Part shown: positions 5,738 to 10,521 of the stretch, one piece after another
Layout of the letters: each line of letters opens with the position of its first letter
How positions within the stretch are numbered: the stretch's first letter is position 1
Assembly (NCBI RefSeq): GCF_001564455.1
Contig: NZ_CP011391.1
Coordinates: forward strand, 1,740,001 to 1,772,000
Reading direction: 5' to 3'
DNA: 32,000 nucleotides
Source of the DNA: Faecalibaculum rodentium
GTDB lineage: Bacteria > Bacillota_I > Bacilli_A > Erysipelotrichales > Erysipelotrichaceae
Program-made: the position numbers and the translations under genes
Notes under the pieces: model-generated
What the model was told of the DNA's origin: nothing
The model's input: the letters and a program-made list of their open reading frames with translations, nothing else
The model's database searches: none

Positions 5738-6898
5738 TTATTTTATATATGCTATAATAAATAACTTACGCTGATGAAGGGTGATAAGATCGTCTAACTG
5801 TGAAAAGAAGGAACCAATTTGAGATTGTTCAGAAACCCCAGGAAACAAAACCAATTGTTTATATAATCGATCCCAATCAATATTTTTCCTACATTGGCTT
5901 GCTCCTTCTGTAGTGGCTTTCAAAAACAAACTCTTCGTTTCTTCTCTTTTAACCCACGTTTGCATGAATTCAGGATTTACATCCACTAATGAATAGACCT
6001 TATATGCTGGAGAAATTATTCCATGCTGGAATCTAAGGTTAACATTCGCATTTCCTAAATGAAGATTCTGTGCAGACAGAATTAAATCATTCTTTTTTAT
6101 TTTTAAATATCCAATATTGGACTTGCCTCTAAAATGGGAGAATAATTCAGAATTTAGGAATATTCCATTGATTGCACATGAGATTAATCGATCTTCGTCC
6201 TCAAAAATCGTTCGTTCCCTTCGTTCATGTATATAATCCCCCAACTTACGCTGTTCCCAATCTATTGTAAAAAGAGGCAAAAACACATCCGTAAGAGTAG
6301 ACTCAACTGTCAGTATCATCTTTCGAAGAAGACCCGATTTGAGTTTTTTGATGGTAACCGACTTACGCTGATGAAGGGTAATGAAATTATCTATCTGCGA
6401 GAAGAAAGCACCAATTAAAGTTTGTTCTTCCTGCTGTCTCGGATATTTAATAACTGTATCTTGCATTGAAGATTTCGAAACAGAGGTTACTTTAATGCCT
6501 TGCATTAAGGGTAGAAGTTGTTTGTGATAGGATTCAGAATTCAAATAGAACCCGAGATATCCTGGGCCAAACTTACACTTTGGTCTGTAGGGAATGGTGT
6601 GTAGACCAGATATAACCTTTTCTTGAGTGACACCTGCTATCTCACTGCATTTACCCACCGTTTCATCCTCAGCAGTATCAGCAATAACTATATCTCCATT
6701 CTGTAGAAACGAATTTTTAAACTTCGAAATTACTTTCACATCTTCTATCAACGGGAGATTCTCTTTTTTAATGTCTAGGATCTCATCAAATTTAACGAGG
6801 ATATCACCATAATGAATATTCATAGCTGACCCGTTTTCAAAAGACAGCTCTGTCCTTGAAAGCGTGTTATTTTGTAAGCCTGTAAGGATTGTTCCCAA
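5738..6898 (-). CDS. hsdS: HsdS-family two-TRD specificity cassette (hsdS'), truncated at both ends; probably not independently translated
   Basis: It contains two different TRDs and the conserved WEQRKLG and (L/F)ITLHQRK motifs. The open frame actually extends to 6919 (E-Y-WEQRKLG), preceded by TGA at 6920-6922. There is no ATG or GTG; only a TTG inside the repeat. The frame ends 8 codons after LHQRK and lacks the C-terminal helix found in hsdS. Confidence 0.8.
   Translation of the reverse strand: MGTILTGLQNNTLSRTELSFENGSAMNIHYGDILVKFDEILDIKKENLPLIEDVKVISKFKNSFLQNGDIVIADTAEDETVGKCSEIAGVTQEKVISGLHTIPYRPKCKFGPGYLGFYLNSESYHKQLLPLMQGIKVTSVSKSSMQDTVIKYPRQQEEQTLIGAFFSQIDNFITLHQRKSVTIKKLKSGLLRKMILTVESTLTDVFLPLFTIDWEQRKLGDYIHERRERTIFEDEDRLISCAINGIFLNSELFSHFRGKSNIGYLKIKKNDLILSAQNLHLGNANVNLRFQHGIISPAYKVYSLVDVNPEFMQTWVKREETKSLFLKATTEGASQCRKNIDWDRLYKQLVLFPGVSEQSQIGSFFSQLDDLITLHQRKLFIIAYIK
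5763..5788 (-). repeat. rep-L (LITLHQRK-coding) copy, 3' border of hsdS'
   Basis: aacttacgctgatgaagggtgataag is 26/26 identical to 9321-9346, in the same orientation. Confidence 0.9.
6238..6263 (-). repeat. rep-W (WEQRKLG-coding) copy, start of TRD2 of hsdS'
   Basis: cccccaacttacgctgttcccaatct: the first 23 nt are identical to 10423-10445, and the last 19 nt are identical to 9815-9833. Confidence 0.9.
6361..6379 (-). repeat. rep-L copy, end of TRD1 of hsdS'
   Basis: acttacgctgatgaagggt is 19/19 identical to 5764-5782 and 9322-9340; its last 18 nt (6362-6379) also match the rep-L copy at 9932-9949. Confidence 0.85.
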
Positions 6899-6915
6899 CT
6901 TACGCTGTTCCCAAT
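6894..6915 (-). repeat. rep-W copy, 5' border of hsdS'
   Basis: cccaacttacgctgttcccaat is 22/22 identical to 6240-6261, and 21 nt are shared with 10425-10445. Confidence 0.9.
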
Positions 6916-6926
6916 ATTCTCAATTA

Positions 6927-7610
6927 TCAGACTCCTAAACGTTCCCTACGATCTGTCAGAAGTTCTCCATCATACTTAAAATACGAGGGACCCTGTACGC
7001 TCCACTTGCTTCCCAGGAGTTTTGCAGCCAGAGCGGAAAGCGACCAGGGTTTTCCTTCATATTCGACCTTATGGTTATCTATTACCCTGAATCTTCGTCC
7101 TGAATTTGGATTACCTATGTTGTAAAACTCCAGTTCAGCACCAACTGGTATTTCACAAAGACCCAAATCAATAGGTGACTTTCGCTCACGGTTCTCGCTT
7201 TCGATTTCTTCTGCGGTTTTTTCATCTTCAATCTCGTCAGCATTAGGCAGGACTCTGTGAAGTTTGTCCTCACAGTTATTGATTTCCGCAATAGCACTCA
7301 GAATTGAATATGCATCTTCCGGATTCATGGCATAGAACTCACGGATTCTCTGTTTTCCGTCAAAAGTCTCAATGGATCTGAGATTGGGATTCAGCTTGTC
7401 AATAATTGAGTGAAGTTTTAAATCTGACAGTCTGGAAGTCACTTCATATGTTGCATAGACACGAAATGCAAAAGGTATGCATTCACTTCGATTCAATTGC
7501 TTCAATCGCTTCTTGATATCGTCTGCATATCCAATTTTTACGTACTCAGGAAAAGAAGGGTTGGTGAGAATATAAATCACACCACCCTTTTTCTCTGTTC
7601 TTCCTGTCAT
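6927..7610 (-). CDS. GIY-YIG superfamily (T5orf172/MUG113-like) domain protein with a C-terminal small domain resembling those fused to R-M-associated GIY-YIG proteins
   Basis: The N-terminus GVIYILTNPSFPEYVKIGYADDIKKRLKQLN...P..F.V...E......LKLHSII...R......REFY matches the T5orf172 pattern. An acidic linker follows. The C-terminus (GAELEF...KVEYEGKPWSLSALAAKLLGSKWSVQGPSYFKYDGELL) is DUF4357-like by recollection only. The start ATG overlaps the hsdM stop (ATGA at 7607-7610). Confidence 0.7.
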   Translation of the reverse strand: MTGRTEKKGGVIYILTNPSFPEYVKIGYADDIKKRLKQLNRSECIPFAFRVYATYEVTSRLSDLKLHSIIDKLNPNLRSIETFDGKQRIREFYAMNPEDAYSILSAIAEINNCEDKLHRVLPNADEIEDEKTAEEIESENRERKSPIDLGLCEIPVGAELEFYNIGNPNSGRRFRVIDNHKVEYEGKPWSLSALAAKLLGSKWSVQGPSYFKYDGELLTDRRERLGV

Positions 7611-9220: not shown

Positions 9221-9268
9221 TTGAATTCTGCCTTTCAATATTCACAATATTGTTATTTATTATTCGAA

Positions 9269-10492
9269 TCAGACAAACATCTGTTGAAGAAGTCCCTGTT
9301 TAAGTTTCTTTAAATCATCCAACTTACGCTGATGAAGGGTGATAAGGTTGTCAATTATAGAAAATAACTCGCCTATTCTTTGCTGTTCTTTGATCCCCGG
9401 AATCATCAGTATAATCTTCCCAAGCTGTTTCCCTGAAATCTCGGAAAACGTAGATCCAGCTGCAACCCTTTCAGCCTTCTCCTTAATTTGTGTTGACATG
9501 GAATATACGAATTCTGGGTCAATATTATTCTTCACAACTATTGACTGAAAGCCCTGATTAGTTGAAGCGTCATTTTTAAGAATAGCAGTTTTACCTATTC
9601 CAGCTCTGCTGGTAAATAGAATTGTTCGATCTTTTGGCAAAATCTTTGCTGAAGAGTTATTCAAACCTACTTCAGTTATTTTCTTTTGGCTCCCATAGAC
9701 ATATCTTGCCTCTGAAATTTCTGCAGGAGTATACCAATTGATGGTTCCATCCCAATATTCTGGATTTGAAGTCGCAGGTGTTCCTCCACTCACTATCTCA
9801 GCCAATTCTCCCAGCTTACGCTGTTCCCAATCTCCAGTAAATTCAGGGAATCGCACTTCCGGAACAGTCTCTCCTGCCTTCGGAAACATCTTCTGAAGTA
9901 GGCCAGATTTAAATTTTTTGAGGTCATCCAGCTTACGCTGATGAAGGGTGATGAGGGCGTCAAATTCCTCAAAACATAATCCAATCTGAGATTGCTCATC
10001 CAAAGATGGAAAAACAACGTCTAAAGTTTGCAGATCAGAATTATGAAGATGGACTACTGATTTGCCTTGTGCTTTTGAAGCCAGTACTTTATGTAAATTA
10101 CCAGATGATAGTTCTATTGCCAGAAATACGGGATTTATGGCTTGGTTTGGCGTAATCACATTTAAATCTCCACCTAATATGATTCCGTCTGGCATTACAA
10201 CTGAAGCACGTGCAATCTCATCTGCTGTTTCTCCAGATGCAGGTACAACGACCTCCCCACCTTTCGATAATAACGATCCTGGCTTTTGGCCAGAACGAGT
10301 ATCAATCGAACTGAAAACTGTTTCGTAATCTGTATACAACCTCCCATACAGTATTATTGGTTTTCCTTCAGTAGATAGATCAGCTTTTGTGTATCCATTA
10401 CCTTTAGCAAAAGAAGCCATCTCCCCCAACTTACGCTGTTCCCAAGGTTCCGTGAAACCCGGAAACCTTATTTTCGGTACATTATCTGCCAT
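9269..10492 (-). CDS. hsdS: Type I R-M specificity subunit HsdS, full length (two TRDs, intact N-terminus and C-terminal helix)
   Basis: MADNVPKIRFPGFTEPWEQRKLG..., the central LITLHQRKLDDLKKFKSGLLQKMF...WEQRKLG, and the C-terminal LITLHQRKLDDLKKLKQGLLQQMFV are present. ATG 10492 has AAGGAGTGGAG upstream; the track GTG at 10507 sits immediately 3' of the AAGGAG core with no spacer. Confidence 0.9.
   Translation of the reverse strand: MADNVPKIRFPGFTEPWEQRKLGEMASFAKGNGYTKADLSTEGKPIILYGRLYTDYETVFSSIDTRSGQKPGSLLSKGGEVVVPASGETADEIARASVVMPDGIILGGDLNVITPNQAINPVFLAIELSSGNLHKVLASKAQGKSVVHLHNSDLQTLDVVFPSLDEQSQIGLCFEEFDALITLHQRKLDDLKKFKSGLLQKMFPKAGETVPEVRFPEFTGDWEQRKLGELAEIVSGGTPATSNPEYWDGTINWYTPAEISEARYVYGSQKKITEVGLNNSSAKILPKDRTILFTSRAGIGKTAILKNDASTNQGFQSIVVKNNIDPEFVYSMSTQIKEKAERVAAGSTFSEISGKQLGKIILMIPGIKEQQRIGELFSIIDNLITLHQRKLDDLKKLKQGLLQQMFV
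9321..9346 (-). repeat. rep-L copy, end of TRD2 of hsdS
   Basis: 26/26 identical to 5763-5788. Confidence 0.9.
9815..9833 (-). repeat. rep-W copy, start of TRD2 of hsdS
   Basis: cttacgctgttcccaatct is 19/19 identical to 6245-6263. Confidence 0.85.
9932..9952 (-). repeat. rep-L copy, end of TRD1 of hsdS
   Basis: cttacgctgatgaagggtgat is 21/21 identical to the cores of 5763-5788 and 9321-9346. Confidence 0.85.
10423..10445 (-). repeat. rep-W copy, start of TRD1 of hsdS
   Basis: cccccaacttacgctgttcccaa is 23/23 identical to 6238-6260. Confidence 0.9.
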
Positions 10493-10521
10493 ATTTATGC
10501 ACTCCACTCCTTTATTATCGG

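Follow-up and report, generated by a model that had tools for sequence, protein, structure and literature searches.

A restriction-modification locus of Type I in Faecalibaculum rodentium with direct recombination sites and signs of specificity shuffling by excision and reintegration

The only locus at which Type I restriction-modification (R-M) specificity has so far been shown in detail to switch by excision and reintegration is pneumococcal tvr (SpnIV), where a recombinase drives the excision and reintegration of target recognition domain (TRD) segments (Kwun et al. 2018, PMC6265443). A different group of systems inverts: in the Enterococcus faecalis Efa4125I inverton the inverted repeats have been mapped experimentally (Huang et al. 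2020, PMC7672463), and the same work placed TvrR in invertase clade 2 and EfiA systems in clade 4, found a single direct-repeat hsdS locus in a sample of 46 and proposed that such systems, in a minority of cases, work by excision instead of inversion. For hsdS domain movement (DoMo) in Helicobacter pylori, a given TRD sequence is reported to occupy either TRD position of HsdS (Furuta et al. 2011, PMC3077401). Here we analyse a 32,000-nucleotide stretch of the Faecalibaculum rodentium genome (assembly GCF_001564455.1, contig NZ_CP011391.1, positions 1,740,001 to 1,772,000; hereafter the window, with coordinates counted from its first letter), which encodes a Type I R-M locus with an expressed hsdS gene, a second, silent hsdS body (hsdS') and a tyrosine recombinase. 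The evidence below makes it probable that this locus is shufflable, and that it shuffles by site-specific excision and reintegration rather than by inversion.

A two-hsdS locus with all sites in one direction

Along the minus strand, the locus runs from hsdR through a 48-amino-acid open reading frame (ORF), hsdS, hsdM, a T5orf172/GIY-YIG-like gene and the start-less hsdS' body to the tyrosine recombinase gene and a serpin gene. The Type I gene set is complete, with hsdR, hsdM and hsdS each carrying their characteristic Pfam domains. The elements that bear on specificity are as follows, with the two repeat types called rep-W and rep-L and the cassette positions called slots 1 to 4.

9269-10492, minus: expressed hsdS, 407 amino acids, two Methylase_S stretches (E 6.7e-42)
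10430-10444, minus: rep-W1, TGGGAACAGCGTAAG
9947-10429, minus: TRD cassette A, slot 1; 483/483 identical copies in slots 1, 2, 3 and 4 elsewhere
9932-9949, minus: rep-L1, ACCCTTCATCAGCGTAAG
9830-9931, minus: linker c, the central conserved helix region of hsdS
9815-9829, minus: rep-W2, TGGGAACAGCGTAAG
9338-9814, minus: TRD cassette B, slot 2; 477/477 or 476/477 identical copies in all four slots elsewhere
9323-9340, minus: rep-L2, ACCCTTCATCAGCGTAAG
7607-9220, minus: hsdM, 537 amino acids, N6_Mtase (E 2e-111) and HsdM_N
6927-7610, minus: T5orf172/GIY-YIG-like gene, Pfam T5orf172 and MUG113; start overlaps the hsdM stop (ATGA)
5738-6919, minus: hsdS', silent two-cassette array with Methylase_S matches (W3, TRD C, L3, linker c', W4, TRD D, L4, 8-codon tail)
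6899-6913, minus: rep-W3, TGGGAACAGCGTAAG
6377-6898, minus: TRD cassette C, slot 3; found only in the window
6362-6379, minus: rep-L3, ACCCTTCATCAGCGTAAG
6245-6259, minus: rep-W4, TGGGAACAGCGTAAG
5780-6244, minus: TRD cassette D, slot 4; 465/465 identical copies in slots 3, 4 and (partial contigs) slot 1
5765-5782, minus: rep-L4, ACCCTTCATCAGCGTAAG
4582-5559, minus: tyrosine recombinase, Pfam Phage_integrase; outside the outermost repeat

The rep-W core TGGGAACAGCGTAAG and rep-L ACCCTTCATCAGCGTAAG each occur exactly four times in the 32 kb, in every case on the minus strand; in shuffled sequence the mean number of matches was 0.07 for rep-W and 0.02 for rep-L, and four copies were reached in 0 of 100 shuffles. 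A search of both strands of the whole window at up to three mismatches revealed no inverted copy of either repeat and no missed inverted hsdS, and a repeat finder returned the same copies as direct families without an inverted partner. Since all repeats are direct, inversion cannot operate. The two repeat types have a common core, CAGCGTAAG, and their exact copies span 15-26 nt. Rep-W borders every TRD on the 5' side and rep-L borders it on the 3' side, forming cassettes of about 450-520 bp, and the four TRDs of the window fall into four different clusters unrelated to each other.

In the expressed gene, whose ATG is preceded by an AAGGAG ribosome-binding site, the order is N-terminus, W1, TRD A, L1, linker c, W2, TRD B, L2 and C-terminal helix. 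The hsdS' frame, by comparison, opens after a TGA two codons before W3 (...TGA GAA TAT TGG GAA CAG...), just past the T5orf172 stop, contains no ATG or GTG start and closes eight codons after L4 (LHQRK-LFIIAYIK, then stop). Its linker c' resembles a degraded copy of the central conserved region; in one lineage of related contigs (L001-L005; for example, L002 at about 4828) it carries an in-frame stop (SVTIK, stop, LKSG...), and it is open in the lineage of the window. The initial annotation, made from the letters alone, had described a recombinase-linked, multi-hsdS Type I locus with exclusively direct repeats (four W and four L on one strand), an hsdS' without a start that is cut at the repeats, and four mutually different TRDs, all of which was confirmed. 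Its repeat identities of 23/23 and 26/26 came close, the longest identities being 24 nt (W1 versus W4) and 26 nt (L2 versus L4), and its distance of 178 bp from the silent array to the recombinase gene holds for the first ATG, although the start itself is ambiguous (5559, 5538 or 5499) and is likely to be 5538 or 5499.

The sites have counterparts of known function. In Efa4125I, IR1 is ATCACTCTTCATCAGCGTAAGTT... (also written ATCACTCTTCATCAGCGTAAGTTAGAACAG...) and IR2 is TGGGAACAGTGTAAG (PMC7672463); rep-W (TGGGAACAGCGTAAG) matches IR2 (TGGGAACAGTGTAAG) and rep-L (ATCACCCTTCATCAGCGTAAGTT) matches IR1 (ATCACTCTTCATCAGCGTAAGTT). Rep-W and rep-L are therefore sequences already known as targets of EfiA-type hsdS invertases, here placed in direct orientation. 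The site sequence is also constrained at the DNA level: across 11 loci from several Bacillota families, the Arg codon in W is CGT at 35/35 sites versus 28% in neighbouring hsdM genes, and the Lys codon is AAG at 34/35 sites versus 62%. Searching the literature for the site sequence yielded nothing but primer matches of no relevance, and the text of the tvr supplement contained no matching core (the repeat alignment there is an image).

The recombinase points to the same family. It is 63-64% identical to the enzymes of the Listeria innocua (63%) and Enterococcus raffinosus invertons, of which the former runs hsdS, int and then an inverted hsdS-hsdM-hsdR, with both site sequences in inverted orientation, and the latter yielded only the rep-L type as an inverted pair. 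Hsd loci of Lactobacillaceae contain homologues at 62-70% identity, and homologues at 55-71% occur in the multi-hsdS loci of this family and of an isolate, Firmicutes bacterium M10-2; a plasmid match (H23, Lactobacillus salivarius pMP118) was set aside, the copy examined not being within an hsd locus. The family comprises more than 8000 homologue clusters, most of about 308 amino acids. An Arg, a His-x-x-Arg, a His and a Tyr are invariant at the expected positions across 18 homologues and are, in our reading, the predicted catalytic residues. The window's own enzyme is 100% conserved in 884 collection blocks.

Cassette movement across contigs of the same locus

We gathered contigs of the same chromosomal locus from mouse-gut metagenomes and metagenome-assembled genomes (MAGs) by looking up proteins identical to HsdM, the recombinase, the T5orf172 protein or HsdR of the window; an exact look-up with the window's HsdS returned no match. 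TRD types were defined as clusters of W-to-L segments, and flank divergence was counted by BLAST. Exclusively direct sites recurred in at least 30 contigs of the same species. Across the set there were about 11 sequenced TRD types, and copies of one type were identical or 1 nt apart whatever their slot, with TRDs A, B and E each present in all four slots. Silent TRDs have identical counterparts among the expressed TRDs of other samples, so the array that stores them is no remnant and is apparently in active use. The arrangements, written as slots 1 and 2 before the slash and slots 3 and 4 after it, were:

window: AB/CD
L024: AB/EF
L032: AE/FB
L040: BF/AE (contig related to lineage 1)
L041: EF/BA
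L027, L033 and L044: EF/BG
L026: EG/B
L039: GG/E
L002: IJ/HD
L003: HI/DJ

The permutations extend into near-clonal lineages. Lineage 1 (L024, L032, L041, L022 and L030) has flanks with 0-7 differences in 7.35 kb, yet it holds five arrangements: AB/EF, AE/FB, EF/BA and the hsdM-less forms E-c'-F and A-c-E. Cassette exchange is conservative, since the three hsdM-containing arrangements of this lineage permute one cassette set {A,B,E,F} with nothing lost. Lineage 2 holds EF/BG, EG/B, GG/E and EF/BG/B. Throughout the hsdM-containing loci, linker c stays at the junction of slots 1 and 2. The GG/E contig (L039, GCA_001945535.1) has TRD G in both positions of the expressed hsdS, which would predict a symmetric recognition sequence.

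Several variants can be rebuilt from another contig by one event at the sites. Removing W1..W3 from L024 gives L022 (hsdR, E-c'-F and recombinase, no hsdM) with 1 difference in 5201 nt, and removing L2..L4 from L032 gives L030 with 2 differences in 3898 nt. Conversely, if the L2..L3 block of L033 (EF/BG), which comprises the C-terminus, hsdM, T5orf172, W, B and L, is inserted a second time into this contig, at L4, the result is L037, which has two hsdM modules, with 0 differences in 11,654 nt; taking W2..W4 out of L037 then gives L026 (EG/B) with 0 differences in 8120 nt. The path from L033 through L037 to L026 would thus convert the expressed gene from E-F to E-G in two steps. L045 carries a tandem duplication of TRD G with c' in its store. 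The hsdM and T5orf172 genes, which always move together across contigs, are absent from L022, L030, L047, L028 and L029, with junctions at W or L in every case; L047 (E-c-B) has the structure expected of L026 minus W2..W3, by layout rather than by base-level reconstruction, and L028 and L029, which no sampled parent reconstructs, are counted only as hsdM-less variants. These losses bear out the initial annotation's remark that reciprocal recombination would delete hsdM. A further contig, L025, was considered as a TRD-less deletion and not counted, its scaffold having an N-gap from W1 to L4.

We found no W×L hybrid junction among 102 W and 107 L sites, and because of this W and L behave as heterospecific partners. 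The comparisons show recombination that is precise at W and at L, conservative and fast relative to point mutation, and that gives rise to deletions, duplications and permutations.

The assemblies themselves carry signs of heterogeneity at the sites. In the first contig set (L001-L011 and L031), roughly every second contig end is found no more than about 40 nt from a repeat. Several metagenome contigs begin exactly at rep-L2, and in one MAG an N-gap reaches precisely from W1 to L4. Seven of nine contigs with the window's exact HsdR end 3-39 nt past W1 or W2, entering different TRDs, and these include one at 517x coverage and another 151 kb long. In 677 of 1129 collection blocks, the longest T5orf172-carrying contig spans no more than 2-5 kb, roughly the length of the hsdM module. 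Two contigs can be closed into circles that match predicted excision products: L006 (MEGAHIT, k = 141) has an exact 141-nt terminal overlap and closes to a 3525-bp circle with the composition of the W1..W3 block, and L008 (k = 31) has a 30-nt terminal overlap (k-1) and closes to a 2928-bp circle with the composition of the L2..L3 block.

A proposed mechanism and its alternatives

With no inverted copy present, EfiA-type chemistry must here give excision and integration. In the mechanism that we propose, the recombinase encoded at the end of the locus would pair like sites, W with W or L with L. Acting within one molecule, it would release one or two cassettes as a circle, which might or might not include hsdM and the T5orf172 gene; hsdM would be part of the excisable segment because it sits between the expressed and silent cassettes. 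Recombination between circle and chromosome would then integrate the circle. Excision by one site type and reintegration by the other would swap exactly two cassettes with the linkers unmoved, and the new TRD pair in the expressed gene would confer a new bipartite methylation and restriction target. A circle that failed to reintegrate would leave an hsdM-less locus with the system off, while one entering an intact copy would create two hsdM modules or extra cassettes. We infer that the recombinase catalyses these rearrangements, that free circles exist, that switching occurs within clones at phase-variation rates and that the methylome changes as a result. In a simple excision/integration model, all observed permutations were reached in two to three cycles, and excision via one site type with integration via the other produced the exact pairwise swap.

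Several points weigh against this proposal. The model predicts misplaced linkers c and c' in 24 of 30 one-cycle products, but none was seen among loci with two cassettes on each side of hsdM; either such products are removed by selection, or the two events of an exchange are not independent but more concerted. All variants come from metagenome or MAG assemblies, which may be chimeric in heterogeneous samples, and L037 with its two hsdM modules could be one such chimeric path. The contig breaks and circles fit clonal switching, but a strain mixture would look the same and could account for the heterogeneity within samples, and circular assembly paths can arise without a free circle when one TRD occupies two slots. 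The hsdM-carrying circle shows no visible replication or retention function. The recombinase itself, assigned to the EfiA type (clade 4) from its sites and homologues rather than by protein comparison with EfiA or TvrR, apparently belongs to a clade unlike that of TvrR. Finally, the locus is an inter-lineage mosaic, and ordinary homologous recombination therefore also adds diversity. Between the window and L024, hsdR is 90%, hsdM 95% and the serpin gene 95% identical, whereas over window positions 4231-7610 identity is 100% in the T5orf172 gene, in linker c' and the tail, and in the recombinase gene with the intergenic region downstream of it. The comparison with L002 shows the opposite, with 100% identity in the hsdR 3' end, N-terminus, linker c and C-terminus and 92% in the recombinase gene. 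Lineages with 10% divergence in hsdR share identical copies of TRDs A and B.

Such mosaicism raises the question of whether host homologous recombination between sister chromosomes, by unequal crossing-over or RecA-dependent exchange at conserved hsdS segments, could have done all of the work, with the recombinase irrelevant or otherwise employed. Unequal crossing-over also generates deletions, tandem duplications and permutations, inter-lineage homologous recombination at the locus is clear, and in tvr some excision takes place without TvrR at longer repeats (PMC6265443). However, the exact repeats here measure only 15-26 nt, and junctions are W×W or L×L and never W×L despite a common core of 9-13 nt. 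The site sequence is moreover conserved at the DNA level across Bacillota families, always beside this recombinase family, and the same sequences are mapped inversion sites in E. faecalis (PMC7672463). L037 is also instructive, being a single L2..L3 block insertion where one unequal crossover would give EF/BG/BG. We therefore consider host recombination as the sole agent unlikely. A similarly low probability attaches to the idea that the arrangements are fixed strain differences, built by horizontal transfer and recombination in clones that are stable and do not phase-vary. All of the data are indeed between-sample or metagenomic, and the identity of TRDs A and B across 10% hsdR divergence amounts to horizontal cassette flow; against this stand five arrangements within a lineage of 0-7 flank differences in 7.35 kb, single-event variants with 0 differences over 8-11 kb, and the breakage of contigs at the sites, which is seen in most samples and also where coverage is 517x.

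The two other options that the initial annotation had listed beside excision and reintegration fared poorly. Non-reciprocal gene conversion of the pilS kind, which leaves the silent donor unchanged, might explain the duplicated TRDs of GG/E (L039), of L037 (B twice) and of L045 (G twice). Yet the cassette set is kept through the permutations, so that a TRD entering the expressed gene leaves the store, as in AB/EF, AE/FB and EF/BA of a near-clonal lineage (with BF/AE in a related contig), and deletion and insertion variants hold whole inter-site blocks including hsdM, which is not a conversion product; we regard conversion as very improbable. Least credible of all is that hsdS' is an inert, decaying fragment whose repeats are merely conserved coding motifs. 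Its missing start codon, truncated C-terminus and, in one lineage, the in-frame stop in linker c' would suit decay, but the silent TRDs are open and identical to TRDs expressed elsewhere, codon choice in the repeats is fixed far beyond background, and the recombinase is unchanged throughout the 884 collection blocks. Excision and reintegration remains the best supported of the options that were listed, by the permutations, the exact reconstructions and the duplication.

Neighbouring genes, wider occurrence and relation to known systems

The remaining features of the locus lie outside the sites or between the silent array and the recombinase gene:

10638-13853, minus: hsdR, Type I restriction subunit, 1071 amino acids; Pfam HSDR_N, ResIII/SWI2_SNF2, T1R_D3-like and EcoR124_C
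10495-10641, minus: 48-amino-acid ORF; start overlaps the hsdR stop (ATGA), end 3 nt before the hsdS ATG
5604-5657, minus: hairpin with a 21-bp stem, then UUUUU, between silent array and recombinase gene
2968-4230, minus: serpin gene directly downstream of the recombinase gene; Pfam Serpin (E 2.6e-84)

The 48-amino-acid ORF is gene-called in most related contigs and had no match in NCBIfam or PADLOC. The T5orf172 gene, translationally coupled to hsdM, matches the PADLOC candidate defence family PDC-S57 (E 2.8e-98); it is split by an IS110-family transposase in contig L004 and absent from the M10-2 relative (L012). The hairpin folds as RNA at -26.6 kcal/mol (z = -7.3) and is terminator- or attenuator-like, placed like the attenuator upstream of tvrR in pneumococcal tvr; a promoter and terminator scan gave matches no more numerous than in shuffles and missed this hairpin, which has a 12-nt loop. 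The serpin gene is held at the same position in all related contigs, and L001 has an extra 910-amino-acid gene between the recombinase and serpin genes (5610-8342 of that contig, faint UvrD-helicase/AAA_19 matches) that is not in the window. A 363-amino-acid plus-strand ORF beside the recombinase gene (3554-4645) was considered as a missed hsdS and rejected, having no Pfam match and lying antisense to the serpin gene.

Loci with direct sites are found beyond this species. The isolate M10-2 has hsdR, hsdS, hsdM, three silent cassettes and int with all sites direct, and two Fructobacillus loci are also all direct. In a metagenome census that found 80 loci with the recombinase profile, site orientation was direct only in 31 and in both orientations in 37; among loci well covered on both sides of the recombinase gene, direct-only and inverted-containing forms stood at 8 versus 8. 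In human-gut relatives such as L094, hsdR, not hsdM, lies between the expressed gene and a three-cassette store. The L094 array (7197-9017) is a single ORF of 606 amino acids whose ATG overlaps the hsdR stop and whose end overlaps the recombinase start, so the store may be translated. Our literature search found no paper describing the configuration seen in the window. These observations suggest that the recombinase and site family of the Enterococcus inversions also runs all-direct in gut commensals, and surveys restricted to inverted repeats would miss such loci.

A broader reading, which we offer only tentatively and consider possible rather than likely, is that loci with direct sites make up a second class of shufflers working by excision and reintegration, one that evolved independently, is widespread in gut Firmicutes and derives from EfiA invertons, and in which TRDs are free-standing cassettes with two heterospecific sites and exchange like a natural recombinase-mediated cassette exchange. 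If so, the circle would carry the methyltransferase gene (hsdR in the human-gut relatives) and excision would double as a programmed OFF switch; the circle might also spread cassettes between lineages, which would explain identical TRDs in hsdR backgrounds that differ by 10%. Under the mechanism proposed above, the locus already provides a natural example of precise cassette exchange with two heterospecific sites inside coding sequence, and a route for a restriction system to switch itself off by excising its methyltransferase gene. Both are relevant to the heterogeneity of methylomes, to phage resistance and the flow of genes within the gut microbiota, and to the fragmentation of metagenome assemblies at such loci.

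Parallels can be drawn with systems outside Type I restriction. In integrons and recombinase-mediated cassette exchange, a tyrosine recombinase cuts out promoter-less cassettes in circular form and puts them back in, and in cassette exchange two flanking site types that do not cross-react allow a double exchange to replace the cassette precisely. Unlike integron cassettes, those described here are in-frame protein domains of one gene, with sites within the coding sequence and no attC-like folded single-stranded sites. The H. pylori domain movement reportedly involves neither a dedicated recombinase nor a silent array and is said to be an evolutionary pattern between strains. Closer in outcome are the pneumococcal ivr/SpnIII (cod), Mycoplasma pulmonis and Bacteroides fragilis invertons, in which, as proposed here, silent truncated hsdS copies are recombined into one expressed hsdS to yield several methylation specificities; four TRDs would give six unordered pairs, the same number as in SpnIII. 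Those systems, however, work by inversion at inverted repeats and employ recombinases of unrelated clades (PsrA/CreX, HvsR and BfiA).

Closest in sites, and apparently in enzyme, are the EfiA-type (clade 4) invertons, exemplified by E. faecalis Efa4125I and EfaH25I (PMC7672463), with which the locus shares the same site sequences before and after each TRD in hsdS, more than one hsdS copy and a homologous, locus-encoded recombinase of about 308 amino acids. In those invertons, and in Listeria and E. raffinosus with the same layout, the second hsdS is instead inverted beyond the recombinase gene, and TRDs exchange by inversion with no excision. Closest in proposed behaviour is tvr, likewise a Type I system with several TRD segments (TESs), exclusively direct repeats of two types with a short common core, a tyrosine recombinase encoded in the locus, TRD segments on either side of the central genes in different isolates, shortened loci from a lost segment and a terminator-like hairpin upstream of the recombinase gene. 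The two loci differ in what moves. The tvr order is hsdM, TESs, tvrA, tvrT, tvrR, TESs and hsdR, with the recombinase and a toxin-antitoxin pair on its circle. In the present locus the recombinase gene is located outside the sites, and hsdM and the T5orf172/PDC-S57 gene make up the cargo of the mobile segment, with no toxin-antitoxin genes between the sites. In addition, TESs in tvr are N- or C-terminal-specific and the first never moves, whereas here any TRD fits any slot, including slot 1. In view of the tvr precedent, and of the direct-repeat hsdS loci also flagged in PMC7672463, the initial annotation went too far in calling such a mechanism unusual. Our best reading is of an EfiA-type system with direct sites, shuffling in the manner of pneumococcal tvr/SpnIV.

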